Assembly (NCBI GenBank): GCA_011364965.1
Contig: RDOB01000002.1
Span: 616,631-646,264 of the forward strand
DNA from: Candidatus Heimdallarchaeota archaeon
GTDB taxonomy: Archaea > Asgardarchaeota > Heimdallarchaeia > Hodarchaeales > Hodarchaeaceae
DNA length: 29,634 nucleotides
Direction: 5' to 3'
Each line of letters begins with the position of its first letter. Positions within the stretch are counted from its first letter, which is position 1. Positions 1 to 23,661 of this stretch are shown one piece after another. The position numbers and the translations under genes are program-made. The notes under the pieces are model-generated. The model ran no database searches and had not been told where the DNA came from. It was given only the letters and a program-made list of their open reading frames with translations.

Positions 1-1222
1 TGGCGTTTGTATGCATTAAATCGAGAGTAATTTTCATATCTTTTTTTGGATCCAAGATGCTAATATCTGCATCTGTTCCAATATCCAAGGTTCCTTTTTC
101 AGGAGCCATTCCATATAATCGTGCAGGATTTGTGGCTAATAAATTACCTAAATCAAAAGGTTGTATCCCTCGTTTCATAGCTTCAGAGAATAAAAGGGGG
201 AATAGTACCTCTGTGCCCATGAATCCATAAGGTATACGATTAAAATAAGGTGAGCTTAATTTTGCTTCTTTTGGGAATGCACAATGATCTGAAGATAATA
301 CACTAATTGTTCCATATTTAATTCCTTCCCAAAGCTTATCTTGATCAAATTGCGTTCGCAGGGGTGGTCCCATGATATACAATGCTGCATCCTCTCGTTT
401 GTATACTTGTTCAGTTAAGGTGAGATAATGAGGGCAAGTTTCAGTAAAAATTTCATATCCCATGCTTTGTCTTAGGTTTATAACGTCTAGACCTTCTCCT
501 GTACTACAGTGAACAACAAATAATGGACAAGCTGCATTATGTGCTAATCGTGAGATTCTTTCAATCGCTTCTGCTTCAGTCCAATTTGGTTTTGTTTTTG
601 CATAGTTTGAAGGTTTGTTTTCTCCCTTATCCAAAGCACGATGAACTAATAATTGTTGAACAGAATGATTTTCTGCATGAACCATTGCCATTCCTCCTGC
701 TTTCCCTATTGCTTCCAGCATCTGAAATATTTGTCCATCAGTTAAAGGCCCTTCTCCAATATTAATCATAAAGATTTTAAAGCTCGGTACGCCGTAATCA
801 ACGACCGATTTATATTCATTCAGAAATCTTTCTTCCGTATAAGTTCCTATGAGGTGAAAACCAAAATTTAAGAGGCTTTGTTTGCTAGCAGCTTCAATAC
901 GGGCTTTAATTGTATCAAGTGGGCCTATGTCCTTATATTGAATGGCAAAATCAATGAAAGCTGTAATTCCTCCAGCTAAACCTGCGGTACTTCCGACCTT
1001 AAAATCGTCAACAGTTACAGGTTCTCCTGTTTCCAAATATTCAAAATGTGTGTGACTATCAATAATTCCTGGGAAGATTAGCTTTCCTGTTGCATCAAGT
1101 GTTTGTTCAGCTATTATCTTTCTTAAAGAAATTTGAGTTATTTTTCCATCTTCTACACCGATATTTGCTTTTTGCAGGCTTGATGGGAAAACTAAGGTAC
1201 CATTTTCAATTGTTAAATCCAT
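1..1222 (-). CDS. hydA: Dihydropyrimidinase/D-hydantoinase-like cyclic amidohydrolase (3' end runs off the window)
   Basis: Not in the ORF track; translated by hand from ATG at 1222, with SD GAGG upstream: MDLTIENGTLVFPSS...GKLIFPGIIDSHTHF...GGITAFIDFA...VPSFKIFM...VHAEN...VVHCST...TETCPHYL...GPPLR...SSDHCAF...ATNPARLYG...GTDADI. The HxH motif, carbamylated Lys, two further His and the Asp of the binuclear amidohydrolase site are all present. Confidence 0.88.
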   Translation of the reverse strand, partial: MDLTIENGTLVFPSSLQKANIGVEDGKITQISLRKIIAEQTLDATGKLIFPGIIDSHTHFEYLETGEPVTVDDFKVGSTAGLAGGITAFIDFAIQYKDIGPLDTIKARIEAASKQSLLNFGFHLIGTYTEERFLNEYKSVVDYGVPSFKIFMINIGEGPLTDGQIFQMLEAIGKAGGMAMVHAENHSVQQLLVHRALDKGENKPSNYAKTKPNWTEAEAIERISRLAHNAACPLFVVHCSTGEGLDVINLRQSMGYEIFTETCPHYLTLTEQVYKREDAALYIMGPPLRTQFDQDKLWEGIKYGTISVLSSDHCAFPKEAKLSSPYFNRIPYGFMGTEVLFPLLFSEAMKRGIQPFDLGNLLATNPARLYGMAPEKGTLDIGTDADISILDPKKDMKITLDLMHTNA

Positions 1223-1419
1223 TTCAATACCTCGATCAATCTAGGTGGATTAATATTAAAAAAACTAGATTTTACATCCATTTAAATTCTTTAAGGATTG
1301 ATCTTCGTCAAATTTCTTATTTCCTTCATAACAGAATATTCGTTATTTCCATAGGAATAGACACTTAAATAGACTTAAAAGGGAGATTCATCCCATAAGT
1401 AATTTTAATGGTGAAAAAA

Positions 1420-2397
1420 ATGAGAAGTTTTATCGGTAGAGACATTTTATCGTTAAAAGAATTCGAAAGAGCAGAATTTGAAAGAGTTTTCGAGGTGGCT
1501 CGTGAGTTAGAATCAATCGCTAGAAAGCGTAGAAATTCTGATCTATTAAAAGAGAAAACATTACTCACAGCTTTTTTTCAACCAAGTACTAGAACCAGAT
1601 TAGCTACAGAAGCTGCAATGCATCGATTAGGTGGACATGTATTAGGTTTCGCTGACCCAAAAATGACAAGAGCTGGAGATTTCTACCAAGAATCAATGAA
1701 AGATACGGTAAGGATGTTAGAGTATTATGCTGATGTCATTGCGATACGGCATTTCCAACAAGGGGCTCCTGCAGAAGCAGCTAAGTGGTCATCTGTTCCA
1801 GTTATTAATTGTGGAGATGGTTGGGGTGAGCACCCTACGCAAGTACTAACAGACCTGTATACCATATGGAGATGGACGGGCGCTGTGCCAGGACTAACAA
1901 ACCTTGATGATTTAACTTGGCTATGTGTTGGTGATATGCGAATGAGAACAATGCACTCCCTTAGTTATGCCCTCACTCAATTCGGAGCTAAGGTCTATTA
2001 TGTCTCTCCTCCTGAAATGTCATTGACAGAGGAGTTTAAAAAAGAGTTAGAAGCTTATAATCCAAATTATACAGAAGTATCAAGTGTTGAGGATTGTGTA
2101 AGCGAAGCAGATGTTATTTATATGGAACCTGTTGTCCAACCTGATTATACAAAATCCCGTGATGAACGTTCAGGTGATGTAGGATTGACTCCTAAACGAT
2201 ATCAAATTTCTAAAGAACTTATGCAGACAAAAGGGAAAAGAAATGCGATAATATTGCACTCTTTGCCACGAATGGATGAACTACCATCAAATGTCGACCC
2301 TACGAGACATTCGTATCAATGGATTGAAGCATTTAATGGCGTAGTTATGAGAATGGCGCTACTCGCTCTAGTAATAGGTGATGGAATTTTAATATAA
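1420..2397 (+). CDS. Aspartate carbamoyltransferase-like protein (pseudo-ATCase, probably altered amine substrate)
   Basis: Carbamoyl-phosphate motifs STRT, IRH and HPTQ are present, as is RTxHSL. The RxQ motif reads YMEPVVQ and HPLP reads HSLP. The ORF track starts at 1408, but ATG 1420 has GGTGA 5 nt upstream and is preferred. Confidence 0.85.
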   Translation: MRSFIGRDILSLKEFERAEFERVFEVARELESIARKRRNSDLLKEKTLLTAFFQPSTRTRLATEAAMHRLGGHVLGFADPKMTRAGDFYQESMKDTVRMLEYYADVIAIRHFQQGAPAEAAKWSSVPVINCGDGWGEHPTQVLTDLYTIWRWTGAVPGLTNLDDLTWLCVGDMRMRTMHSLSYALTQFGAKVYYVSPPEMSLTEEFKKELEAYNPNYTEVSSVEDCVSEADVIYMEPVVQPDYTKSRDERSGDVGLTPKRYQISKELMQTKGKRNAIILHSLPRMDELPSNVDPTRHSYQWIEAFNGVVMRMALLALVIGDGILI

Positions 2398-2431: not shown

Positions 2432-2788
2432 CTATTTTATTTTTCTTTTTAGAAAAGATGGCAATTTGGGGATAGCCTTGGATTTATCCTCTGGATGAGT
2501 AATCAACCCTAGAATTCCCATTAGAGAAAAAAATAAACCCATTGTTAAAAAAAGAAGACGGATGGAAGCAATTATTTGTGAGATTAAATTTTCTGGCATT
2601 TCTCTAGTAAATATAACAAGAATTAAATAAATTAAAAGTAATAAAATCCCCCATGGTAGCGTTTGAGGGTTAAGAAGTCTTACGCCAGGAGGCATTCCTT
2701 TCATATTTTTGAATGGTTTTGTAGAGGATTGAGGTCTACCTCTTTCCTCTTGACCCTCTGAAAGTTGATCTTGTTGATCGCTTTGCAT
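2432..2788 (-). CDS. Small 2-TM membrane protein, last gene of the ECF operon
   Basis: Polar N-terminus followed by two hydrophobic helices; starts 4 nt after the ecfT stop codon. Confidence 0.65.
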   Translation of the reverse strand: MQSDQQDQLSEGQEERGRPQSSTKPFKNMKGMPPGVRLLNPQTLPWGILLLLIYLILVIFTREMPENLISQIIASIRLLFLTMGLFFSLMGILGLITHPEDKSKAIPKLPSFLKRKIK

Positions 2789-2792
2789 AGGA

Positions 2793-3629
2793 TTAAATTC
2801 CTAAAGTCAAAAAAGTGTTTATCCTCCATGCTATCCAAGTAAACCATGAGGCAAAGAAGATAATGACAATAAACCAATCTCTTTTTCGAAATCTTACTTC
2901 CTTCATATAAGTTCTGTCGATTCCAAGCTGCTCAGGTAGCGAGTACCCTCTTATCTCCATTGCTAAAGCCATTTGAGTTCCTCTTTTTAGAGCTCCAACG
3001 GCTAATGGGACAAAAGTTACCACGAGCCCTCGTAGCATATTAATTGGATTAAGAGAAAACATGGAGGGGTATCCTCGCGCTTCAGCTGCGTTTCCAATAT
3101 TATTTAATTCCTCTTGGATTAAAGGGAATAATCTCATTGCAAAACCTACCATATAAGATGCTCTAAACCCTAGTCCAATATTATGCAATGCATGGCCAAT
3201 ATCGAAAGGGTCAGTTGACATTACAAACATAGAAAATGCCATTGCCATAGCCATTATTCTGATTCCAAGTGAAAGGCCGAATGAAACACCTGCCAACGAT
3301 AGATTCAAAATAAAAGGTTCGCCAAATAATTGGGATAGGAGCTCGATTTCAATGGGTAAATATGGTTCACCTGCGAAGAAAAAGACCTGTAATAATAATA
3401 ATGCAACAACCATCGGTAGGAGTAGGAGTATGAACCCAATATATTCCCATGGCCATATTTTCCCAAATAGTGCGATTATAATTATTGGGATTAGAAAGTA
3501 AATGATCATATAATAATCTAGAGGAGCTAATAAAACTAGAATTACATAAAATAGGGCAACAACGATTTTAGTTACTGGATTCAGACTAGATAGGAAAGAT
3601 TTTCTAATTGAAAATTCGTATAAGAGCAT
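2793..3629 (-). CDS. ecfT: ECF transporter transmembrane T component (EcfT/CbiQ family)
   Basis: N-terminal SxLxxLNPxTK, multiple TM helices and two coupling motifs (EARG, EIRG); adjacent to the ECF ATPase. Confidence 0.93.
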   Translation of the reverse strand: MLLYEFSIRKSFLSSLNPVTKIVVALFYVILVLLAPLDYYMIIYFLIPIIIIALFGKIWPWEYIGFILLLLPMVVALLLLQVFFFAGEPYLPIEIELLSQLFGEPFILNLSLAGVSFGLSLGIRIMAMAMAFSMFVMSTDPFDIGHALHNIGLGFRASYMVGFAMRLFPLIQEELNNIGNAAEARGYPSMFSLNPINMLRGLVVTFVPLAVGALKRGTQMALAMEIRGYSLPEQLGIDRTYMKEVRFRKRDWFIVIIFFASWFTWIAWRINTFLTLGI

Positions 3630-3639
3630 TTTGCGACAC

Positions 3640-5361
3640 CTACTGATTTAATATTGAAATTATTGCTTTTTCTGCTTCCTTTAGCGTTAAAGGAAGAGGA
3701 TTAATTCTAAGATTATCACACAGTTGAGTAATTTGGGGAGGACGAACATTTGTCTTTGCTAATTCTTTCGCTTGAGAGAATGTGGAGCGAGGATCTCCAT
3801 CTAGAAGTACTTTACCTTGATGAAGGGCTATCAATCGTTCTCCGTATTCGGCTGCAAGCTGAATCCAATGAGTAATGACCACCACACTCACACCTTTTTC
3901 TTTATTTATAGCTTGTAGTTCTCTCATTAGTTTATCTGCACTGATTCTATCCAAACCTGTCGTTGGTTCATCAGCTATCAACAATGTTGGCTCCATTGCA
4001 TAGACTGAAGCTAATGCTACAAATTGCCGTTCTCCTCGACTTAATCTAAAAGGATGGACTTTTCGTAAATCCCACAAATTGAATCTTTCTAAAGTGTCCT
4101 TTACTCGATCTTTTCGTTCAGCTTTTGGCATTTTAAGATTTTTCAATCCAAATTCAATTTCGCTGGCTACATCATCTTTGAATAATTGATGATCTGGATT
4201 TTGGAAAACATAACCTATTGTCTGAGCAAGCTCTCTAGAAGAAAAGTCCCTTATATCTTTGCCATTGACAAAGATTGTCTCTTTAGGAGGTTTAACTATT
4301 CTTTTTATACATTTAGATAATGTGGTTTTGCCAGAACCATTTTGACCGATTATACATGCGAATTCGTTCTGATTTAGCGATAGAGTTATACCATCCAATG
4401 CTTTCACATGTTTATTATAACCAAATACTAAATCATTAATTGTGACGAGAGGATCAATATCATTTCGTTTGTCGGTTAGGTTGTCTGATTTCCAGTTACG
4501 ATCATTAGGTCCAAGTAAATTAGTGAATAGAGGCACAGCTTGACTTAGATTTAATGGGGGGTGGATATTAAATCCTTTCTTCCTCAAATTTTGTCCTAAT
4601 CTAGTAACTTGAGGTGGTAGTATTCCGCTTTGTCCTAAAGTGTCGGCTTCTTCAAAGAATTGATCTGGAGGAAGATCTAATGCTATTTTACCACCTTTTA
4701 ATAAAATCATTCTATCGCAATAATCTGCTAGTTCTTCAATCTTATGTTCAACCATCAAAATGGTCATATCTAGCTTTTTTGCCATCGTTCTGACGGCATC
4801 AAATACTAATTCTGTTCCTGACGGATCTAAGCCGGAAGTTGGTTCATCTAGCATCATTACTTTGGGATAAAGCGTGGAGACAGAAGCAATTGCGATTTTT
4901 TGTTTTTCTCCTCCACTGAGTCCATAGGTGGTTCGATTATAAAGATCTTGAAGTTGAAATCGTTCAGTTGCTTCTTGCCTTCTTCGTTCGATTTCATCTT
5001 GGGTTAAACCGAGATTTTCTGGTCCCCAGGCTAATTCATCTTTTACGTATAGATTAAATAATTGAGCTTCGGGATCATCGAGAACTAAACCAACTTCCTG
5101 TGAAATTGTACCTAGTGCGTTTTCACCAAGGGGCTTTCCTTTATATAATATTTCTCCGTCTAAAACTTTAGCTGTATAGAATTGAGGAATAACTCCATTA
5201 ATTAAATATAATAGGGAAGTTTTTCCTACACCTGTTTCTCCAACAATTCCTACAAACTCATTTTCTGAAATCGATAGATTTAATCCCTCAAATAAAGGTT
5301 CAGTGCCTCGTCTATATTGAAATTTGATATCTTTCAATTCAATGAGTGGGATTTTGTGCAT
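3640..5361 (-). CDS. ECF transporter ATPase with two fused ABC domains (EcfA-A')
   Basis: Two complete NBDs: GETGVGKT/LSGGEKQ/LDEPT/VEH and GQNGSGKT/FQNPDHQ/LSRGERQ/ADEPT/ITH. Confidence 0.95.
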   Translation of the reverse strand: MHKIPLIELKDIKFQYRRGTEPLFEGLNLSISENEFVGIVGETGVGKTSLLYLINGVIPQFYTAKVLDGEILYKGKPLGENALGTISQEVGLVLDDPEAQLFNLYVKDELAWGPENLGLTQDEIERRRQEATERFQLQDLYNRTTYGLSGGEKQKIAIASVSTLYPKVMMLDEPTSGLDPSGTELVFDAVRTMAKKLDMTILMVEHKIEELADYCDRMILLKGGKIALDLPPDQFFEEADTLGQSGILPPQVTRLGQNLRKKGFNIHPPLNLSQAVPLFTNLLGPNDRNWKSDNLTDKRNDIDPLVTINDLVFGYNKHVKALDGITLSLNQNEFACIIGQNGSGKTTLSKCIKRIVKPPKETIFVNGKDIRDFSSRELAQTIGYVFQNPDHQLFKDDVASEIEFGLKNLKMPKAERKDRVKDTLERFNLWDLRKVHPFRLSRGERQFVALASVYAMEPTLLIADEPTTGLDRISADKLMRELQAINKEKGVSVVVITHWIQLAAEYGERLIALHQGKVLLDGDPRSTFSQAKELAKTNVRPPQITQLCDNLRINPLPLTLKEAEKAIISILNQ

Positions 5362-5666
5362 TGTCAGTGTTTTTATCTCCTGATGAATATAAAATATCGA
5401 TTATGATTATTTTTTGAAGTTTTATGCTCAGTTTGAGATCTACTAAGGGATCTTTTAGCATTTCTGATCTGATTTACAGTATTATCAACATCAAGTCGAT
5501 AACTTTCACCGCTGAAGGTATCTTGACGATCTTCCTAAATTATTGAAAAGGTATCCCCAACAGCTCTTTTGTTAGTCTATCAGGTAAAAGAGCTTCAACT
5601 GAAGCTTTGCTTAGTTAATAATGAAAGAATTTAATTTAAAAGCATTTTATTATATTCATGAGCTAT

Positions 5667-5686
5667 AAAAAAAAGGGGAGAAGAAG
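5667..5686 (-). terminator. Putative U-tract terminator after the S-component gene
   Basis: Minus strand reads cttcttctcccctttttttt about 25 nt after the stop codon at 5712. Confidence 0.5.
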
Positions 5687-5711
5687 TTTCTGAAAGATTA
5701 AGCTAATTTTC

Positions 5712-6287
5712 TTATCGCCAGAGAACTTCGCTTCTTACAATTGATCTCGTAATGAAGAATCCTATTGCTGTACCTATTCCTACTGAAATGAAAATAATCA
5801 CACATGCGATTAAGAAGAAGTCAATAGTACCACCCCAGATCAGGATGATAGCGAATAATTCAGGGAATAATCCGGGAAAACCAGCTAGTCCTGCAATTAA
5901 GAATTTTTCAAATGTTATTTCTTTTTCACCAACACCAAATAAACGAAGCACGGCAACGATAATAATCCCGTTGATTGTGTTTTCAATAAACCAGATTGGT
6001 GCTAGTGGGCCAGTAGCTGTCAAGTTTGCAACAATCGGATTGATATTTGCAACAATTAGCGCACCAGTCATACCAAAGAGGCAGCAACCAATAACAAGCC
6101 AAGTAAATAAATTAATATTACCAAATATTAACACAGAACCGCCTGTTAAAGCTGTATCAACTCTTTCTGCGACTTGAGCACAAGCTGTGAAAGCAACTGC
6201 TATTAGTACCGACGAGACAATGGCTTTAGAAGATTTTGGCCAAAGTTCGAACTCAAATGATGGAATTGGATCGATTGGTAGTCCCAT
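5712..6287 (-). CDS. Probable ECF substrate-specific S component
   Basis: 191 aa with about 6 TM helices and an FGxxGALI motif; upstream of ecfA-A' and ecfT; SD GGAGTGA lies within the end of the preceding gene. Substrate unknown. Confidence 0.75.
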   Translation of the reverse strand: MGLPIDPIPSFEFELWPKSSKAIVSSVLIAVAFTACAQVAERVDTALTGGSVLIFGNINLFTWLVIGCCLFGMTGALIVANINPIVANLTATGPLAPIWFIENTINGIIIVAVLRLFGVGEKEITFEKFLIAGLAGFPGLFPELFAIILIWGGTIDFFLIACVIIFISVGIGTAIGFFITRSIVRSEVLWR

Positions 6288-14392: not shown

Positions 14393-15136
14393 TTAATTTA
14401 GTGAGAGTAATTCCTCCAAGCTTTCCACGGCTTCTCCGATAATTAATATGGCAAAGAATAATAAAATAATAGCAGAACCCTTCGTAATCCAGTTAAAGAA
14501 TCTTGGATTTGGTGATCGTCTAATGACTGCTAAAAAAGTAGTAAATATGAGAACCCATGCAAGAATTCCTGATAAAAACATTAATACAATAATCAGACGT
14601 GATACTAAATCAGGAGCGTTAAAATCACTAAATAATATTATTGTTCCAGCTGAAATCCACCATAGGTATGACCATGGAGAGCTAATTACAACTGATAAAC
14701 CAGTTATGTACCGATTTGATAAGTATCGTGAAATATTAATTTGGTTCTTTGAAGTACTAATTAGATTTGTGTTATCAATACTAATTATTCCCTCTGTTTT
14801 TTTTAAAAGGCTTGAGATGCCCAAATATCCCAGAATCAATATATTAATTACAAAAAGTATTAGCTTAATCAAAGGATTAGAAAAAATATCTTCCAAGGTT
14901 TCTCCTCCAATAGTTAGGGCCATAAACGCCATAAAAAAGTCTCCAGTCATGGCGCCTATTCCAATCAAAATTGAGGAAAGCCAAGCAACCTTATGACCAT
15001 ATGATATATTAAGAGCCTGCTTAATCATTTCTACATTGATAGGCCCCAAAGGCGCAGCAAGAGTTATACCTAGAAATGCGACAATGAACCAGGTTCCTAA
15101 AATCTCTAATAGGTTCAAAAATAATTTTATCTCCAA
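14393..15136 (-). CDS. LysE/RhtB-family amino acid exporter
   Basis: LAAPLGPINV, G...GAMTGD, YLG and SPWSYLWW motifs; about 6 TM helices. Confidence 0.9.
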   Translation of the reverse strand: MEIKLFLNLLEILGTWFIVAFLGITLAAPLGPINVEMIKQALNISYGHKVAWLSSILIGIGAMTGDFFMAFMALTIGGETLEDIFSNPLIKLILFVINILILGYLGISSLLKKTEGIISIDNTNLISTSKNQINISRYLSNRYITGLSVVISSPWSYLWWISAGTIILFSDFNAPDLVSRLIIVLMFLSGILAWVLIFTTFLAVIRRSPNPRFFNWITKGSAIILLFFAILIIGEAVESLEELLSLN

Positions 15137-15234
15137 ATTATTAAATATAACGAATTTTTAAAAAGAATTATTTTATATTAAACTCTCGAATAACATAAAA
15201 TTTGTTCTATTTAATAAGGAACTGTGTGTAAAAT

Positions 15235-16611
15235 ATGAAATTTGAAGATTTAAGTTTTGAAGACGCTCCTAAAATAACTGGAAAGATACCTGGATTGATA
15301 TCAAAAAAGATTTTGCAAAAACAATTAGCTATTGAAGGAAAAGCGTTATCTTATCCTCGTAATATTCCTTTTGTTATGGAAGAAGGATTTGGTGCTACGA
15401 TAAAAGATCCTGATGGAAATATTTTTATTGATTTCTTTTCTGGTGCAGGTGTACTTGCATTAGGTCATTGTAATCCCTTTATCACGAAAGCTGTGGAAAC
15501 TCAACTTAAAAAAATCACCCATACCTTGGATTTTCCAACAAAGATAAGAATTGAGTTAATTGAAAAATTACGAGATATCTTGCCAGAGAAACTTAAAAAC
15601 AATATTAAAGTACAATTTGGTGGTCCAACTGGTTCAGATGCGGTAGAAATGGCCGTTAAATTGGCAAAAATCATTACAAAACGCCATACACTCCTTTCTT
15701 TTGAGGGGGCTTATCATGGTATGACTGCTGGAGCATGTTCCTTAACATCAGGAAGCTTCTGGAAAGAAAAATACTTGCCAATGTTGCCAGAAGTTCATTT
15801 TGTACCTTATGCATATTGTTATCGCTGCATTTTTAATCAGGATAGAAAGCAGTGCAAGTTTCAGTGTATTTCCTTTTATGAACACGTTCTAGCTGATCCT
15901 CATTCAGGAGTAGTTCACCCTGCAGCAACAATTATTGAGCCAATTCAAGGAGAGGGCGGGTCTATCGTTCCTCCTGAAAAGTTTATAAAATCCATAGAAG
16001 AAATTAATAGAAAATATGATGTACCTATAATATTTGATGAAATTCAATCTGGTTTCTATAGAACTGGAAAATTATTTTCATTTGAACACTCATCGGCCAC
16101 ACCAGATATTATAACAATGTCAAAAGCCTTAGGAGGTGGTTTTCCACTTTCTGCTATTGCTTATCGTGAGGAATTAGATATCTGGCATAAGGGTGCTCAC
16201 ATAGGTACGTTTAGAGGTAATGTAACTGCAATGGCTGCTGGTTTGGCTTGTATTAATTTCATGATAGACAATGATCTTGGAAGTCACGTTTTATCCACAG
16301 GTAAATTCATGTTAGATTATCTAAAGAAATTGGAAAAAACCTCTGATATTGTTGGTGAGGTTAGAGGAAAAGGACTAATGACTGGAATTGAGATTGTTAG
16401 TAATAAGGAATTGAAAATACCTTCAAGTGCTTTAGCTGCAGAAATACGAAATAAATGTTTTCAAGAAGGAGTGATTATTGAAGTAGGTGGTCATTATGAT
16501 AATGTTGTGAGATTCCTTCCACCCCTTATTATTACTCATGAATTAGTCAAAACTGGCATTATGATAGTAGAAGAAGCTATTGCACAAGTCGAGAAAAGGA
16601 TGAAAAAGTAG
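15235..16611 (+). CDS. Class III PLP aminotransferase, diaminobutyrate aminotransferase (Dat/EctB)-like
   Basis: GPTGSDAVE, YHGMT, EPIQGEGG, DEIQSG, MSKALGGG (PLP Lys) and GAHIGTFRGN, the last typical of DABA aminotransferases. Confidence 0.9.
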   Translation: MKFEDLSFEDAPKITGKIPGLISKKILQKQLAIEGKALSYPRNIPFVMEEGFGATIKDPDGNIFIDFFSGAGVLALGHCNPFITKAVETQLKKITHTLDFPTKIRIELIEKLRDILPEKLKNNIKVQFGGPTGSDAVEMAVKLAKIITKRHTLLSFEGAYHGMTAGACSLTSGSFWKEKYLPMLPEVHFVPYAYCYRCIFNQDRKQCKFQCISFYEHVLADPHSGVVHPAATIIEPIQGEGGSIVPPEKFIKSIEEINRKYDVPIIFDEIQSGFYRTGKLFSFEHSSATPDIITMSKALGGGFPLSAIAYREELDIWHKGAHIGTFRGNVTAMAAGLACINFMIDNDLGSHVLSTGKFMLDYLKKLEKTSDIVGEVRGKGLMTGIEIVSNKELKIPSSALAAEIRNKCFQEGVIIEVGGHYDNVVRFLPPLIITHELVKTGIMIVEEAIAQVEKRMKK

Positions 16612-16621
16612 GAAGTGAGTA

Positions 16622-17824
16622 TCAAGGAATATTTCCCCATAATATAGCAAATGAAGCATAAAATTCCAAAGCTTTAATCAAATGTTCAATTGGAACCTGA
16701 TCCTCCTCTGTATGGGCATATTTTTCATTTCCAGGTCCAAAGCCAAATGTTGGTATATTAAATAATCCTTTACATCCAACACCGTTAGTAGAGAAGGGCC
16801 AGATGTATAATTCTGGTTCTTCATTGAATTGCAATTGATAAGCTTTAATTGCGGTTTGAATTAGAGGATGTGAAGTATCCATATACCAAGAAGGATAAAA
16901 CGCTTTAATTTGATGATTAGAACCTGATCTACTTTTATATTCATATTCTGGAATATATACTGTTGCGTTTGCTGTTTTTACTGTTTTTAAATATCTTATC
17001 TCTTTAAGAACATCTTCCTCAGTTTTAGACTCTTGTGGTGTTAATCTTCTATCGATATGGATAGTAACGCTGTCTGGTATTGCATTCTGATTAACTGCCG
17101 TTGAATATATGTCAGTTACAGAGATACATGGTTTTCCAAAAGTAGAATCGATAGGAAAGGTCGTGTTCATTTCTTCAATGTCCAGTATTATTGGTGCAAT
17201 TTTATATATAGCATTTTCTCCTTGTTCAGGAGATGCACTGTGACAGGAAACACCAGATGTTTGAATTTTTAAATCTACACGACCTCGTTGTCCATATGCA
17301 ATTTTTAGATTGGATGGTTCTGCTATTATGACTGCATCAGGGGATATTTTGTTTTCTTTAATGATATATTGCCAGTTTAATCCTTCGTATATTTCTTCCA
17401 TAACAGATGCTATTGCTAGAAATTTAAGACCTCTGGGAATTCCTATTTTCTTTAATATGGCTCCAGTATAAACTAAAGATGCAATAGATCCTTTCATATC
17501 ACAAGCGCCTCGCCCATAAATAATTCCATTCTTTATTATCCCCTTATAAGGATCGAAATTCCACTTTTCTAAATTTCCTACATCAACAGTATCCACATGT
17601 CCTTCTATGGCTAGAATTCTCTCTCCATGGCCTAATTGGCCTATTAAATTACCCATTCCATCAATAAAAATATTTTCATACCCAATTCTTTCCATTTCTT
17701 GCTTTATTCTCTGAATGACTGCTTCTTCATTGTTAGAAAGGGATGGAATTGCTATTATATCTCTTGTGAATAAAATCAAGTCATTCTTTAGCTCAGATGC
17801 AGCTTTCATTATTGCTTCTTTCAT
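16622..17824 (-). CDS. ygeY: YgeY-like M20 metallohydrolase
   Basis: GHVDTVDVG, GRGACDMKG, EEIYEG, EPS...GQRGR, GVSCH...GENAIYK, WPFSTNGV and GFGPGNEKYAH. Confidence 0.85.
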   Translation of the reverse strand: MKEAIMKAASELKNDLILFTRDIIAIPSLSNNEEAVIQRIKQEMERIGYENIFIDGMGNLIGQLGHGERILAIEGHVDTVDVGNLEKWNFDPYKGIIKNGIIYGRGACDMKGSIASLVYTGAILKKIGIPRGLKFLAIASVMEEIYEGLNWQYIIKENKISPDAVIIAEPSNLKIAYGQRGRVDLKIQTSGVSCHSASPEQGENAIYKIAPIILDIEEMNTTFPIDSTFGKPCISVTDIYSTAVNQNAIPDSVTIHIDRRLTPQESKTEEDVLKEIRYLKTVKTANATVYIPEYEYKSRSGSNHQIKAFYPSWYMDTSHPLIQTAIKAYQLQFNEEPELYIWPFSTNGVGCKGLFNIPTFGFGPGNEKYAHTEEDQVPIEHLIKALEFYASFAILWGNIP

Positions 17825-17887
17825 GATGAATAAACTGAAATTCTAGTTTATTTAATCTATCTTCTTCAAGTCAAGCTATAAGAGAAG

Positions 17888-18673
17888 CTAATCCGATATT
17901 TCGTGATCTTGAAGAATTCCCTCTGCAACATCGGACATTCGACTAAAAATAACATTTTTTGTTTTCATGTGTTTGATAAGATCTTCTAATACATTCAATC
18001 TATAAGCATGACCGATAGCTGCTGGATGATTTGTTAAACAAAATACTCGACGATTAAGAGGAATATCATCATCGTTTGAAAATGCGTCAAATTGTGATTT
18101 CCAGATTTCTAAAACTGAGGAAGGTGAATGTTGGTATGTTTCAAAAACTTGCCAATCATCCAAATACCATTCAACAGGAAATTCAACTAATTTTTTTGAA
18201 TCTGGTAGGGTAAGAATATATGGACGATCATCATTAAATAAACTGGAATCATAAATGTATCCCGCTTTTGCTATTAATTCCAAAGTATTAGGAGAAAGTC
18301 TCCAATATGGTGCTCTGAATCCCTTAACTTTGTCAACAAACTTCTCTAATGGCCTCGTCATTCTCTCAATTACTATTTCTTCTTCAAAAACAGATAATTT
18401 ATCCATATATTCATGCAAATACCCATGAGCTGCTAGTTCATGTCCCTCTTCGATGATTTTTTCAACCGAATTTGGATACTGTTCTACTACCCATCCACAT
18501 GTGAAGAATGTTGCTTTGATATCATATTTCCTAAGCAGAGTAAGAATTCGTGGCATTCCTCTTCGTACAGCAAATTGACCTTTGGATATTCTTCCTTGTT
18601 CTTCCAATTGGCGAATCTGTACACTTTCAGCATCAAAATCGAATGTTAAACAGGCATATAATTGATTAGTCAA
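17888..18673 (-). CDS. CE4 polysaccharide-deacetylase-fold amidohydrolase (HP0310/PuuE-like)
   Basis: TFDFD, ATFF, HELAAHGYLHE, GFRAP, YDSS, LDDW and NHP; no signal peptide; TTG start with SD GAGG. Confidence 0.9.
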   Translation of the reverse strand: MTNQLYACLTFDFDAESVQIRQLEEQGRISKGQFAVRRGMPRILTLLRKYDIKATFFTCGWVVEQYPNSVEKIIEEGHELAAHGYLHEYMDKLSVFEEEIVIERMTRPLEKFVDKVKGFRAPYWRLSPNTLELIAKAGYIYDSSLFNDDRPYILTLPDSKKLVEFPVEWYLDDWQVFETYQHSPSSVLEIWKSQFDAFSNDDDIPLNRRVFCLTNHPAAIGHAYRLNVLEDLIKHMKTKNVIFSRMSDVAEGILQDHEISD

Positions 18674-18686
18674 ACGTATTCCTCTT

Positions 18687-19610
18687 TTATATCCTTAATA
18701 ATGGTAATGTCATACAATGAGGGCCCCCTCCGCCTCTAGATAGTTCACTTCCTTTAATTGGAATTACCTCAACTGATTGGTCTCGTAATTCATGTATTAT
18801 TCGTTCATTCCATTCATAAATAACACATTTTCTTCTTTCAAGGCAAAATATGTTTGCTCCAAATAGATATAACTCATTATCTGTTATTTTTATGTTTCTT
18901 GCCTCATATTTTTCATTTAGAAACTCCAATAAAGTCATTAGTTCTATAGGTTCATTTTTTCGTAAAATTCGGGCCGGATAGGTAGAGATCGAGGCAGGAT
19001 GGTAAACAAAAAGGTCTTTATCTAGAAACATTATTCCTCCATCGAGATGAATTCGCCATGAGGGAAGAGGAACTAAAACCACAGTATGTACAAGTTCCTT
19101 CTCAAGTAATATTTTACTTACTTTTTTGGCACTTCGTTCAGTTGTTCTTGTACCATATCCAATGAGTAATGTATTATCATCAGGAAAGACAAGATCCCCT
19201 CCTTCTACCACGTCAGGAGATTCAATTTCCATTAATTTAGGGATTTTAAGTTTTTGGAGAGCATAAGAGATTAATAATGGTTCGATTGATCTCACATTAT
19301 GTTTCATATTCATTTGGATATATCCCCCTTTGGTTACGGCACAAATATCACGTACATAAGTCAAATTTGGATTAATAACTGCTATTTCTTTTTCTGTGAG
19401 CAAATCATTCAAAAAAATGACTTTAATTCCATTTTCAAGTAATGTTCTGGAAAAATTATCATGCTCTTCTTGAAATCGCTTCCAGAATACAACATCCCTA
19501 AAAGAAAATTCCTTAAAAGAATTAACTGTAATTTTTTTGCATTCTTCTCCAGGACGGTACATTAAGACTTTTTTTAGCGAGTTATATTCACAATGAGCAC
19601 CAAATTCCAT
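18687..19610 (-). CDS. Short-form arginine deiminase/amidinotransferase (pentein) family protein
   Basis: NLTYVRD, EGGD, GTRT, HLD and [13 protein letters not shown]; the Cys-His-acid triad is intact. At 307 aa it is too short to carry the helical clip domain of long ADIs. Confidence 0.88.
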
Positions 19611-19659
19611 TTAAATCAGCGTACCATGAATTTTTATTCAAGAACACCTATTAACCAGA

Positions 19660-20463
19660 TTAAAACATGGTTAGCAGTTCTTTGGGTAATCTAAGGAATC
19701 CAGCGAAAATCAGAGCGAAGGAAATATTCATCATGTTCGTCCAAATATAATGAATGTACATTACATCGCTAAAATACCAAAAAACCCAACCTGAGAATGA
19801 GATAGCTAAGATAATAAAACCAAGTGCAATAATAAATGGAGAGGATAGATCTGAATTCTTTCCCAAATTATACCAATAAAGTGCATAAATCAATACTATG
19901 GGAATAACTATTAAAAAGAAGAATCCATACATCCCAAAAATGTCTTCTAAGATTAATAATGATATTATAAACCCTATTTCTCCTAAAACCAGGATCAAAA
20001 GTGCTGGAATATATACTAAATTTGATTCAAACCTTTTAATTTTACCTAGACCAACCCAAAAGCAAGCTAACCAGATAATTATTGGAGAATACCAAAAGAT
20101 GTAACTTAAAGGGTCTGAGGTATTAAAAGAAATGAATCCTAAAGCTTCCAAACTTAAACCCAGGTATAAAAGAGAGAAAATTAGAAATGAGATACCCCAA
20201 ATAATGAGATAGTCTGGTTTACCTTTCAATGGTTTAGTTTTACTAAAATAGCGATATAAAAGAAATCCACCAATTAAAAGCAGAAGAATGAATGCTGTTA
20301 CTGCCACTGCAAATTGACCATAAGTGTTCATTAAATTTGTTATTGGGAATCCTTTTGGTTTGATTAATGTTATAGCAATTAGAATCAGATAAGTAACTGC
20401 TATTAATATGGAATTTTTTTCATTTTTCTTTAGATAATTAATTGTGACATCCTTGATATTCAT
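19660..20463 (-). CDS. Multi-pass (7-8 TM) membrane protein of unknown function
   Basis: Hydrophobic throughout; SD GGAGG; first gene of the minus-strand run ending at ygeY. Confidence 0.8.
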   Translation of the reverse strand: MNIKDVTINYLKKNEKNSILIAVTYLILIAITLIKPKGFPITNLMNTYGQFAVAVTAFILLLLIGGFLLYRYFSKTKPLKGKPDYLIIWGISFLIFSLLYLGLSLEALGFISFNTSDPLSYIFWYSPIIIWLACFWVGLGKIKRFESNLVYIPALLILVLGEIGFIISLLILEDIFGMYGFFFLIVIPIVLIYALYWYNLGKNSDLSSPFIIALGFIILAISFSGWVFWYFSDVMYIHYIWTNMMNISFALIFAGFLRLPKELLTMF

Positions 20464-21505: not shown

Positions 21506-22792
21506 TTGTTAATGAACACTAATCACTCTGGTTTTTATAATTCAAATTTAGTATGTCCTAAGTGCCACAAAACAGTAAAAGAAGAAGATTTTATTTTAAA
21601 TCAATGTGCCTGTAATTTTCGGCTAAGAATAAACTTTGATTATGAAAGATTGAGTGAATCACTTTCAAAATCTGATTTAATGAGACGTCCATTTAATCAC
21701 GAAAAATATATTGAATTTTACCCTTTAAAGAATAGCAAAAACCTTATAAATTTAGGTGCTGGTGGAACTCCTTTATTTCGTGCTGAACGCTTGGCAAAGA
21801 AAATTGGAATGAAAAATTTATTTCTCAAAATTGAAATAGGTAATCCATCTGGAAGTTTTAAAGATCGTCCGATATCGATTGGCGTATCAAAAGCTAAAGA
21901 ATTAGGTACAGAGACATTAACTGCTGCATCTTCTGGTAATGCTGCTGCTGCTTTAGCAACCTATGGAGCTCGTGCAGGTAAAGAAGTGGTGGTTTTTGTA
22001 CCAGAAGCTGCTCCCCAAGGAAAGATAGCTCAACTTTCATTCTTGGGTGCTAAAGTCATTCGTGTCTCTATAGTAGAAGAAGGCATAGATCCAACCGTAA
22101 CACTGTTTAAGGCTGCTTATAAAGAATACGGTTGGACCCCATGCCCATCATTTGGTCCTTTCAATCCTTTCCAAGCTATAGGGACAAAAAGCCTTGGTTT
22201 CGAGATTGCAGAGCAATTCAACTGGGAATCACCAGATTGGATATTATGCAATACAGGTAGTGGAGGATTATTATGGGGGACTTACAAAGGATTTGATGAG
22301 TTTAAGCAACTCGATTATATCAACGCAATTCCTAAAATGGTAGCTGTTCAACCAGAGGAATGCTCACCGATTGTGGAAGCAGCAAAAAGAAACATTCCTC
22401 CACTCGAATTCATAGATTGGACTAAGACTCCTAATACTGTAGCTGGCGGGTTAGCAGATCCTCACCCCTGGGATGCTGATTCCGCTTTAGAGGCTATCTA
22501 TGAAAGTAAAGGAACAGGTATTGCAGTAAATGAAGTAGACATTATCCGAACTCAAAGATGGTTGGCAAAATACGAGGGAATTTTTGGAGAGCCATCAGGT
22601 ACTGCTGCCATTGCTGGATTAGAACTGTTATACGAAAACGGAACGATTGATGCGAGTGATCAAATTGTAATCCCCATTACAGGAACTGGTTTTAAGGATC
22701 CAGAAATTGTTTTGAAGTCATTGAAGGTATTTAGTCCAATTAAACCTGATTTAAGCCAATTGCAATCTTTATTGAAAGAAATGTCAAACTAA
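21506..22792 (+). CDS. thrC: Threonine synthase-like fold-type II PLP enzyme
   Basis: N-terminal CxxC...CxC, GxGGTPL, NPSGSFKDR, SSGNAAAA, EGIFGEPS and ITGTGFKD. Alternative start ATG 21512. The NPxR motif reads NPFQ. Confidence 0.8.
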   Translation: MLMNTNHSGFYNSNLVCPKCHKTVKEEDFILNQCACNFRLRINFDYERLSESLSKSDLMRRPFNHEKYIEFYPLKNSKNLINLGAGGTPLFRAERLAKKIGMKNLFLKIEIGNPSGSFKDRPISIGVSKAKELGTETLTAASSGNAAAALATYGARAGKEVVVFVPEAAPQGKIAQLSFLGAKVIRVSIVEEGIDPTVTLFKAAYKEYGWTPCPSFGPFNPFQAIGTKSLGFEIAEQFNWESPDWILCNTGSGGLLWGTYKGFDEFKQLDYINAIPKMVAVQPEECSPIVEAAKRNIPPLEFIDWTKTPNTVAGGLADPHPWDADSALEAIYESKGTGIAVNEVDIIRTQRWLAKYEGIFGEPSGTAAIAGLELLYENGTIDASDQIVIPITGTGFKDPEIVLKSLKVFSPIKPDLSQLQSLLKEMSN

Positions 22793-22845
22793 TATATACC
22801 ATACTTTAAAATATATCCCTCTGAGAAAAAAGGAGTTTTAAAAAA

Positions 22846-23661
22846 ATGCCTCGACCAATGTGGTTTGTAAATTTAATTAAGAAAGGGTTTCCCCACAGAT
22901 TCTTTTTTTCTAAATTTACTAAAGTTCCATTGATTGGGAGAATATTGGACTACATGATGTTTCATGAAGATGATATTATCTATCTTCCAAAAGATACGGC
23001 CATAAAGGTGAATCAACCAATTGAGAGGCATGGAGATATGATTCTTCCATCTGTTGTTGTAGATCATTTCATTGACGAAGCAAACTATCTCTGGGTGATG
23101 GATTGGTGTATTTGTAGATCCTCTTCTAAGTGTGATAGTTATCCTACAAATTTCGGTTGTCTTTTTCTTGGAGAAGCAGCAATTGATATTGACCCTCGCC
23201 TCGGACGTCAAGTGACCCGACAAGAAGCTCATGAACACGTTAAAAAATGTCGGGAGGCAGGATTGGTTCATTTAATTGGACGTAATAAACTAGATACAGT
23301 ATGGCTGAAGGTGGGGCCAAGTAAAAAATTACTTACAATATGTAACTGCTGTGAATGTTGTTGTTTATGGCGTATACTACCACATGTATCCCAAAAAATT
23401 TCAAATAAGGTAACCAAACTACCCGGTGTGTCTGTTCAAGTGGGAGAAGAATGTTTGCTTTGTGGAATCTGCACAGAAGGCATTTGCTTTGTTAACGCGG
23501 TAAGTTTAGGGGAAAACCGAGCAGAGATTAGTGATTTATGCCGAGGATGTGGTCGATGTGTCGAAGTATGCCCGCAGGGTGCAATTAGTCTGACTATTAA
23601 GGATCCTGAGAGCATACTTTCATCAATAAATAAAATAGAATCGCTTGTTGATATAACCTAA
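22846..23661 (+). CDS. 4Fe-4S ferredoxin-domain protein
   Basis: CICR...C...GC, ICNCCECCC, and C-terminal CLLCGICTEGIC and CRGCGRCVEVCP; SD AGGAG. Confidence 0.9.
   Translation: MPRPMWFVNLIKKGFPHRFFFSKFTKVPLIGRILDYMMFHEDDIIYLPKDTAIKVNQPIERHGDMILPSVVVDHFIDEANYLWVMDWCICRSSSKCDSYPTNFGCLFLGEAAIDIDPRLGRQVTRQEAHEHVKKCREAGLVHLIGRNKLDTVWLKVGPSKKLLTICNCCECCCLWRILPHVSQKISNKVTKLPGVSVQVGEECLLCGICTEGICFVNAVSLGENRAEISDLCRGCGRCVEVCPQGAISLTIKDPESILSSINKIESLVDIT

Follow-up and report, generated by a model that had tools for sequence, protein, structure and literature searches.

A pseudo-ATCase with replaced aspartate ligands, encoded head-to-head with a HyuA-like hydantoinase in an archaeal genome

The window analysed here is a 29,634-nucleotide stretch (C9:616631-646264) of archaeal genome G000 (2.97 Mb, 87% complete), in which RadA, PAC2 and a SAMP-like protein are encoded. 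At one end of it, a gene for a protein that resembles aspartate carbamoyltransferase (ATCase), here called pATC for pseudo-ATCase, is separated by a spacer of 185-197 bp from a divergent gene for a HyuA-like hydantoinase, in agreement with an earlier note on this DNA that had described the two genes as head-to-head. Altogether, the active site of the protein, its place in the transcarbamylase tree and the gene clusters of its orthologues lead us to favour, with somewhat better than even confidence, the view that pATC is a catabolic carbamoyltransferase for a substrate other than aspartate. Its target would be the 2-ureido group of an N-carbamoyl-alpha-amino acid delivered by the hydantoinase, cleaved by phosphorolysis.

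The pATC gene, its active site and its family

The start codon of pATC is probably the ATG at 1420, because the first residue of all pATC homologues matches the Met encoded there and a GGTGA motif lies 6 nt ahead of it. An in-frame ATG at 1408, which would lengthen the protein by 4 residues (329 aa), is less likely. The TTTAAAT/TTAAATAG boxes of the intergenic region may act as promoter elements. A scan of the same region for sigma-70 promoters and terminators gave no informative match, as is to be expected in an archaeal host.

The protein passes the TIGR00670 cut-off marginally (242.9 bits against 236.95) and is therefore annotated as ATCase in databases; the genome's real PyrB scores 331.8. 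Against the YgeW models it reaches 39 bits, with a cut-off of 453, which places it outside that family. The AlphaFold (AF2) model of pATC has a pLDDT of 89, with lower values only in the 80s and 240s loops, and the closest structure to it is the P. abyssi ATCase bound to N-phosphonacetyl-L-aspartate (PALA) (1ml4; TM 0.85-0.90, 38% identity).

For inspection of the active site, pATC was aligned to E. coli PyrB (from NC_000913.3, whose residue numbering is used throughout) and to 49 true ATCases, and conservation was counted over 121 family members. The carbamoyl-phosphate site is complete, with STRT (S52-T55), IRH (R105/H106) and HPTQ (H134-Q137), and R167 is retained within GDMRM-R-TMHS, with one residue, G166, deleted ahead of it. 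The surroundings of the second substrate have changed. The 80s loop, KMTRAGDFYQES, carries S80R, an inserted Asp, K83F and K84Y; TRVQKER has become EPVVQPD (T228E, R229P, Q231V, R234D); and HPLP has become HSLP (P266S). The earlier note had read the carbamoyl-phosphate site and R167 as intact and had reported the loop without K84, EPVVQ at TRxQ and HSLP at HPLP, and the alignment confirmed each of these readings. Additional substitutions that it did not list are E50Q, G85Q, F286W and Q288E.

In complexes of ATCase with PALA, R167 binds the alpha-carboxylate of aspartate, R229, Q231 and K84 bind the beta-carboxylate, and E50 and R234 lock the closed state. All five of the residues K84, R229, Q231, R234 and E50, which are 100% conserved in the 49 true ATCases, are replaced in pATC. 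Across the replaced positions as a whole, the canonical residues are 88-100% conserved in the true ATCases and each replacement is 98-100% invariant within the family. With replacements this invariant, the substitutions are a constrained alternative active site, neither decay nor chance. Compared with ATCase, the pocket has lost three cationic residues and gained four acidic ones, and it would fit an N-carbamoyl-alpha-amino acid with a neutral or cationic side chain, not aspartate. The side chain could be the 3-ureido or 3-ammonio group of 2,3-diureidopropionate or 3-amino-2-ureidopropionate, or the ureido group of allantoate. Of the two substrates offered in the earlier note, N-carbamoyl-beta-alanine is disfavoured because the residues expected to bind its carboxylate (R229, Q231 and K84) are lost, whereas R167, the ligand of an alpha-carboxylate, persists; the other option, a purine-derived ureide, fits better.

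G000 encodes four transcarbamylases, namely PyrB, an OTCase (426 bits), pATC and a YgeW/AOTCase-related enzyme, the last of which directly adjoins a carbamate kinase and a PhzF protein at the end of contig C2. PyrB lies within a pyrG-pyrB-pyrI-pyrD-pyrK-pyrF-pyrC-pyrE operon on contig C16. The earlier note had observed that no pyrI adjoins pATC, and it had proposed as checks a search for a canonical pyrB/pyrI and a transcarbamylase phylogeny. The first observation was correct, and the canonical pair was located in the full pyr operon. In a tree of 105 sequences, the pATC family forms a clade (SH-aLRT 100) nested in a pseudo-ATCase clade (92), whose members have the R-A-G-D 80s loop in common and lack RxQ. 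The clade of true ATCases, which holds both the genome's own PyrB and that of E. coli, excludes pATC.

Relatives of pATC number in the thousands, are 316-317 aa long and 70-75% identical to the window protein, and come from Chloroflexota, Actinomycetota, Planctomycetota, Spirochaetota and other phyla. Clustering at 50% leaves only two full-length representatives of the family, and no relative outside it exceeds 50% identity. Among 8,000 candidates scored there were 7,989 matches, all annotated as aspartate carbamoyltransferase, and the best 120 listed are family members; the same annotation is carried by every one of at least 590 matching stretches in species-representative genomes. The nearest outgroups (P0133 and P0134) sit in contexts unrelated to the pATC clusters and gave no functional lead. 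A genuine ATCase is encoded elsewhere in four of the five bacterial carrier genomes checked, as it is in G000.

Gene clusters of the orthologues and the setting in the archaeon

The neighbourhoods of pATC were scored in 85 bacterial loci, up to 10 kb either side of the gene. A YgeW-like transcarbamylase, 34-40% identical to E. coli YgeW, was found within this distance in 68 of the 85, and it comes directly after pATC in every locus whose gene order was followed, 44 of them by neighbour count. A carbamate kinase gene occurs in 63 loci, a protein that fits the 8-oxoguanine deaminase model of NCBIfam (NF006055, 669 bits) in 43, an XdhAC-like enzyme in 25, and SsnA and a luciferase-like reductase in 14-16. 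Two types of cluster were recognized. One comprises the 8-oxoguanine-deaminase-model protein, a GntR regulator, pATC, the YgeW-like enzyme, carbamate kinase, a PnrA-type ABC importer and a ThrC-like pyridoxal-phosphate (PLP) enzyme, followed, where the flank is long enough, by a 488-aa PLP enzyme and a HyuA-like hydantoinase. The other combines an XdhAC-like enzyme, SsnA, the luciferase-like reductase and two PLP enzymes with pATC, the YgeW-like enzyme and carbamate kinase.

Judged by their gene content, these clusters represent the reductive urate (2,8-dioxopurine) pathway in environmental versions. In this pathway, described in 2025, SsnA produces ureidomethylhydantoin, from which HyuA forms 2,3-diureidopropionate by ring opening; one ureido group of the latter is then phosphorolysed by YgeW, and YqeA makes ATP (bioRxiv 10.1101/2025.04.24.650524, 10.1101/2025.05.19.654654). 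YgeY hydrolyses the other ureido group and YgeX cleaves diaminopropionate. A luciferase-type variant in Chloroflexota was noticed by Li et al. 2025, who scored transcarbamylases by Pfam domain only.

The relation of pATC to the other enzymes acting on ureido groups was followed in an even sample of 121 genomes of the class Anaerolineae, with coordinates compared by hand. pATC occurs in 21 of these genomes, and a YgeW-like gene accompanies it in 20 of the 21, compared with 29 of the 100 genomes lacking pATC; pATC is thus an accessory to the YgeW module. Wherever both genes are on one contig, the YgeW-like gene directly follows pATC. The YgeY family scores above its cut-off in 101 of the 121 genomes, some of them without the YgeW-like gene. 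Of the 29 clusters lacking pATC, 20-23 have YgeY immediately ahead of the YgeW-like gene, the place that pATC takes in its own clusters. A clean replacement of YgeY by pATC was considered and rejected, as YgeY is near-universal in this class and as 8 of 20 pATC clusters still have it linked on the upstream side. The pattern is one of insertion of pATC with partial displacement of YgeY and no clean swap, in counts that, coming from related genomes, are not phylogenetically independent. In four of five pATC carrier genomes from other groups, YgeY above the cut-off is absent.

A separate observation from the same Anaerolineae genomes is that YgeY often lies directly upstream of the YgeW-like gene even where no other scored gene of the urate pathway is present.

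The features of the window are collected in Table 1. The hydantoinase beside pATC scores 343 bits with TIGR02033, below the cut-off of 393, is 34% identical to E. coli HyuA, has D-hydantoinase 1nfg as its best PDB match and possesses all of the metal ligands (HxH, K, H, H, D). Its score with the allantoinase model TIGR03178 (236, cut-off 358) does not reach that assignment. Upstream of the window it is followed by an Asp/Glu/hydantoin racemase (Pfam Asp_Glu_race, 190 bits), for which the best PDB match is allantoin racemase 5lfd (E 2.9e-49). Still upstream, on the opposite strand, are a 489-aa CysK/CBS-like PLP enzyme and, ahead of it, a 4Fe-4S protein (L005:13285-15687). No characterised close relative of the 489-aa enzyme was found; it is 64% identical to an enzyme of L015, a bacterial urate cluster with a pATC that NCBI assigns to Spirochaetota.

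Table 1. Features at the pATC locus and in the remainder of the window
Feature	Position	Strand	Remarks
HyuA-like D-hydantoinase/dihydropyrimidinase-class cyclic amidohydrolase	2..1222	-	First 407 of 459 codons; extends upstream of the window
Divergent intergenic region	1223..1419	.	AT-rich; TATA-like TTTAAAT/TTAAATAG boxes; GGTGA at 1410-1414
Pseudo-ATCase (pATC)	1420..2397	+	325 aa; Pfam OTCace_N and OTCace
Small membrane protein	2432..2788	-	Convergent on pATC; no family assigned
EcfT/CbiQ, ECF-type transporter	2793-3629	-	Pfam CbiQ
Fused double ABC ATPase, ECF-type transporter	3640-5361	-	Pfam ABC_tran x2
191-aa polytopic protein, candidate S component	5712-6287	-	191 aa
YgeY-family M20 hydrolase	16622..17824	-	NF009555 461.6 bits, cut-off 321; 39.5% identity to E. 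coli YgeY
ThrC-like PLP enzyme	21506..22792	+	428 aa; 28% identity to PALP400 of L015
4Fe-4S protein	22846-23661		After the ThrC-like PLP enzyme

On the other side of pATC, the small membrane protein is also found downstream of the pATC orthologue in contig L100 (44% identity over 73 residues), and whether it is linked to the pathway is uncertain. From its position, the ECF-type transporter (2793..6287) is a possible importer of the substrate. The YgeY-family hydrolase is encoded 14 kb from pATC in a separate deiminase/CE4 operon. The ThrC-like enzyme is a distant relative of a PLP enzyme of the bacterial pATC operons and could have a role in the same pathway.

Two side observations concern this region. 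The operon at 14393-20463 encodes an ADI/pentein deiminase, a CE4 deacetylase-type amidohydrolase and YgeY, and converges on a diaminobutyrate-type aminotransferase. A fold-type-II PLP enzyme together with a protein of about 265-270 aa with C-terminal 4Fe-4S motifs occurs as a pair twice, at L005:13285-15687 and at window positions 21506-23661.

Elsewhere in G000, the end of contig C2 (C2:53400-62967; L007, L109) carries a second cluster of ureide type. It begins with an SsnA-like amidohydrolase and, in divergent orientation, a genuine dihydropyrimidinase (428 bits); next come a transglutaminase-like protein, a radical SAM enzyme, PhzF, the YgeW/AOTCase-related transcarbamylase and carbamate kinase. 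Two HyuA-like proteins (34-37% identity), YgeY (461.6 bits) and arcC (368.5 bits) are present in G000, dispersed over two contigs, and the carbamate kinase, for which the earlier note had suggested searching, is 44% identical to YqeA. No M20 hydantoin-type carbamoylase was found in G000, and the match to YgeX is weak. A full urate pathway was not found in this genome, with SsnA missing, YgeX weak and XdhAC matched at 28%. The large subunit of carbamoyl-phosphate synthetase (CPSase) could not be detected in G000 or in 30 of 31 relatives, some of them near-complete or closed, and none of 31 genomes of this archaeal class had a match above the cut-off. In a lineage without CPSase, carbamate kinase looks like a housekeeping enzyme; it is probably the general source of carbamoyl phosphate in the lineage and may be the only one.

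Within the archaea, pATC is absent from all 21 genomes of the same genus, and copies 65-66% identical are found in three genomes of another genus of the same class. In two of these three, G036 and G040, a HyuA-like hydantoinase gene is divergent from pATC, which is followed by YgeW-like, carbamate kinase and XdhAC-like genes. The metagenomic contig L100 encodes a pATC 86% identical to that of the window in the same order, with a 75%-identical hydantoinase on the divergent side and the small membrane protein downstream. The family tree places the two archaeal groups in different, well-supported bacterial subclades, and at least two transfers from bacteria are therefore indicated, which makes the archaeal pATC a clear case of transfer of a catabolic module from bacteria to archaea. 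The window hydantoinase is 28% identical to its counterpart in G036/G040, so that the head-to-head pairing with a cyclic amidohydrolase either arose or persisted in very different forms.

Proposed reaction and the alternatives to it

We infer the direction of the pATC reaction, the ureido group attacked and the identity of the substrate from gene context and site architecture. The racemase and the HyuA-like hydantoinase would convert a ureido-hydantoin (5-ureidomethylhydantoin or allantoin) to an N-carbamoyl-alpha-amino acid, which would be 2,3-diureidopropionate or allantoate. pATC would then run the ATCase reaction backwards on the 2-ureido group, with phosphate as the second substrate and the alpha-amine and carbamoyl phosphate as products. 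The carbamoyl phosphate could be used by carbamate kinase for ATP or pass straight to PyrB and ArgF, a route that would matter in an archaeon without CPSase. In effect, the scheme would be pyrC-pyrB in reverse on a ureido-hydantoin. The earlier note had likewise proposed ring opening followed by phosphorolysis, and this part of its suggestion gains from the orthologue clusters, which are purine-catabolic and rich in YgeW-like and carbamate kinase genes, and from the pairing in G036/G040; its N-carbamoyl-beta-alanine option does not. Three of its refuting conditions were checked, and all came out in its favour, as the genome has a canonical pyrB-pyrI and a carbamate kinase elsewhere and pATC lies outside the true-ATCase clade. 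The energy conservation that it attached to the route holds less well for this archaeon, where the kinase is unlinked to pATC and looks like a housekeeping gene.

Several findings weigh against this scheme. The substrate has two ureido groups, and there is no obvious need for three enzymes to remove them; YgeY, besides being linked in the Anaerolineae clusters mentioned above, is encoded somewhere in 17-19 of the 21 pATC genomes. HyuA-type products are D-configured, whereas ATCase uses L-aspartate. In G000 itself, pATC is unlinked from the YgeW-like and carbamate kinase genes of contig C2, and the transcarbamylase there is only 35-39% identical to the bacterial YgeW-like partner. SsnA was not found in this 87% complete genome (best score 121.7 bits, cut-off 455.5), nor was a close XdhAC, the nearest candidates being molybdenum hydroxylases of 28% identity; for YgfK or another reductase there was a partial GltD-like match. 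The upper urate pathway therefore seems absent, and the hydantoin would need to be imported. Carbamate kinase occurs in 28 of the 31 relatives, which lack pATC, and its presence says little about catabolism; the argument that a carbamate kinase elsewhere in the genome proves a catabolic route is weakened accordingly, the more so as CPSase is lacking. Finally, one of the five carriers checked, G041 (Anaerolineaceae, closed 2.54 Mb chromosome; pATC locus L027), has no other ATCase. This genome also lacks a convincing PyrD, has two OTCase-like genes and is probably that of a pyrimidine auxotroph.

Among the alternatives, we regard attack on the distal 3-ureido group as unlikely. Here pATC would convert albizziin (beta-ureidoalanine) or 2,3-diureidopropionate with phosphate to the 3-amine and carbamoyl phosphate, or would remove the exocyclic ureido group while the ring of ureidomethylhydantoin is still closed, and the 2-ureido group would fall to the YgeW-like enzyme or to YgeY. 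Li et al. 2025 assign YgeW to the 2-ureido group, so that a second enzyme would be left with the 3-ureido group; which cleavage comes first is a matter of open dispute (PMC12990295), and operon partnership alone cannot separate the two positions. The site residues speak for the 2-ureido position, as the ligands of a distal carboxylate are lost but R167 is kept, the residue that in ATCase binds the carboxylate next to the carbamoylated nitrogen, in the alpha position. Moreover, the known diaminopropionate 3-carbamoyltransferases are OTCase-like, not ATCase-like (PMC4581275), and the characterised pseudo-ATCase, UGTCase, uses an alpha-ureido acid. Of lower probability is a non-purine N-carbamoyl substrate in this archaeon, such as an N-carbamoyl-amino acid from imported 5-substituted hydantoins or a ureido compound made by the pentein deiminase block, which lies 12-17 kb downstream, with carbamoyl-phosphate supply as the main role. 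Such a role would suit a lineage without CPSase, and it would account for the absence of SsnA and XdhAC orthologues, for the missing linkage to the YgeW-like and kinase genes and for the divergence of the hydantoinase from that of G036/G040; the window also offers a deiminase, a CE4 amidohydrolase, the YgeY hydrolase, an aminotransferase and transporters. The active-site residues, which are the same as those of the bacterial orthologues in urate clusters, nevertheless give no sign that the substrate has changed, and the racemase is of the allantoin/ureido-hydantoin type.

An anabolic role, in which pATC carbamoylates an amine and the amidohydrolase cyclises the product as a pyrB-pyrC-like module for a hydantoin- or dihydropyrimidine-type metabolite, appears very improbable. 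Transcarbamylase reactions are reversible, carbamate kinase can produce carbamoyl phosphate, and the nearest outgroup pseudo-ATCases stand beside biosynthetic-looking aminotransferase, HMGL-like, SDR and DHO_dh genes, yet the neighbours of the family itself are catabolic (the 8-oxoguanine-deaminase-model protein, XdhAC, SsnA, the GntR regulator, PnrA-type uptake and the YgeW-type enzyme). Even less credit can be given to pATC as a second, unregulated ATCase isozyme. The score above the TIGR00670 cut-off and the lone pATC of G041 would fit it, and against it stand the loss of the five residues invariant in true ATCases, the canonical pyrBI of G000 and of four of the five carriers, the separate clade, and the want of a convincing PyrD in G041.

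A wider reading than phosphorolysis of the 2-ureido group can be put forward, tentatively and with more doubt than confidence. The pATC family might be the missing second phosphorolytic step of reductive urate degradation, acting on the 2-ureido group of 2,3-diureidopropionate or 3-amino-2-ureidopropionate, so that carbamoyl phosphate would be formed from both urea-like groups of a purine, with two ATP per urate, not one. The acquired archaeal copy might then have been rewired with a hydantoinase and an allantoin-type racemase into pyrC-pyrB in reverse, a module by which ureido-hydantoins from the environment would supply carbamoyl phosphate for making pyrimidines and arginine. If this is true, anaerobes could gain a second ATP per purine. 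The function of pATC bears on the disputed point of which ureido group falls to which enzyme, and the family belongs to environmental versions of a urate pathway whose gut-bacterial form was worked out as late as 2025. Its ATCase label is also a widespread mis-annotation, given an active site unable to bind aspartate in the known way. In the recipient archaeal lineage, all of the carbamoyl phosphate seems to come from carbamate kinase or from the phosphorolysis of ureides.

Comparison with known systems

The term pseudo-ATCase was coined by Barba 2013 (PMC4016543), who left open the function of A1SH59 from Nocardioides sp. JS614. By sequence, pATC is an orthologue of this protein and a member of a bacterial-type pseudo-ATCase family. 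A1SH59 (label ATC_III_HSLP, subgroup 2 of PMC4016543) has in common with pATC the blocks MTRAG(D)FYQES, GDMRMRTMHS, IYMEPVVQ[AP]DYT and HSLPRM (supplementary file 5), and a genuine ATCase is encoded elsewhere in its genome, as for pATC. The gene for A1SH59 is bacterial and adjoins a YgeW-type gene, xdhABC and hyuA (PMC4016543), whereas the archaeal pATC gene adjoins only the hydantoinase, with the racemase beyond it. In Table 1 of PMC4016543, the motif rows for pseudo-ATCase groups 1-3 disagree with the numbering in the text and with the HPLA/HTLP/HSLP tree labels, and because of this mismatch the subgroup of A1SH59 was assigned by sequence.

The only pseudo-ATCase subgroup that has been assayed is that of ureidoglycine carbamoyltransferase (UGTCase; Rubrobacter xylanophilus Rxyl_2847), which phosphorolyses allantoate to carbamoyl phosphate in vitro (PMC4016543). 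Like pATC, UGTCase is an ATCase paralogue mis-annotated as ATCase, and it is encoded beside a cyclic amidohydrolase (allantoinase) and carbamate kinase. It forms its own subgroup, however, which keeps the Lys of the 80s loop (SSSAAKEES), has GCS for RxQ and HTLP, and is without the RAGD loop; the genes around it serve oxidative (uricase) purine degradation, unlike those of the pATC clusters. The HSLP of pATC agrees with the H[TS]LP of the UGTCase signature, but PVV stands where UGTCase has G-x-[SC] for RxQ, the 80s loop is RAGD-FYQE, and there is no allantoinase neighbour.

The YgeW, YqeA, YgeY and HyuA set of E. coli and Clostridium follows the same logic, in which a hydantoinase, a transcarbamylase and carbamate kinase together yield ATP. 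YgeW is a knotted OTCase/AOTCase-like enzyme, unlike the ATCase-like pATC, and the urate clusters of E. coli and Clostridium are without pATC, whereas the environmental clusters have pATC in addition to the YgeW-like enzyme. With PyrB, as represented by the P. abyssi enzyme (1ml4), pATC has in common the fold, the carbamoyl-phosphate site, R167 and the flexible 80s and 240s loops. It differs from PyrB in being without the aspartate ligands, the closure residues, a PyrI partner and a pyr operon, and in belonging to a separate clade.

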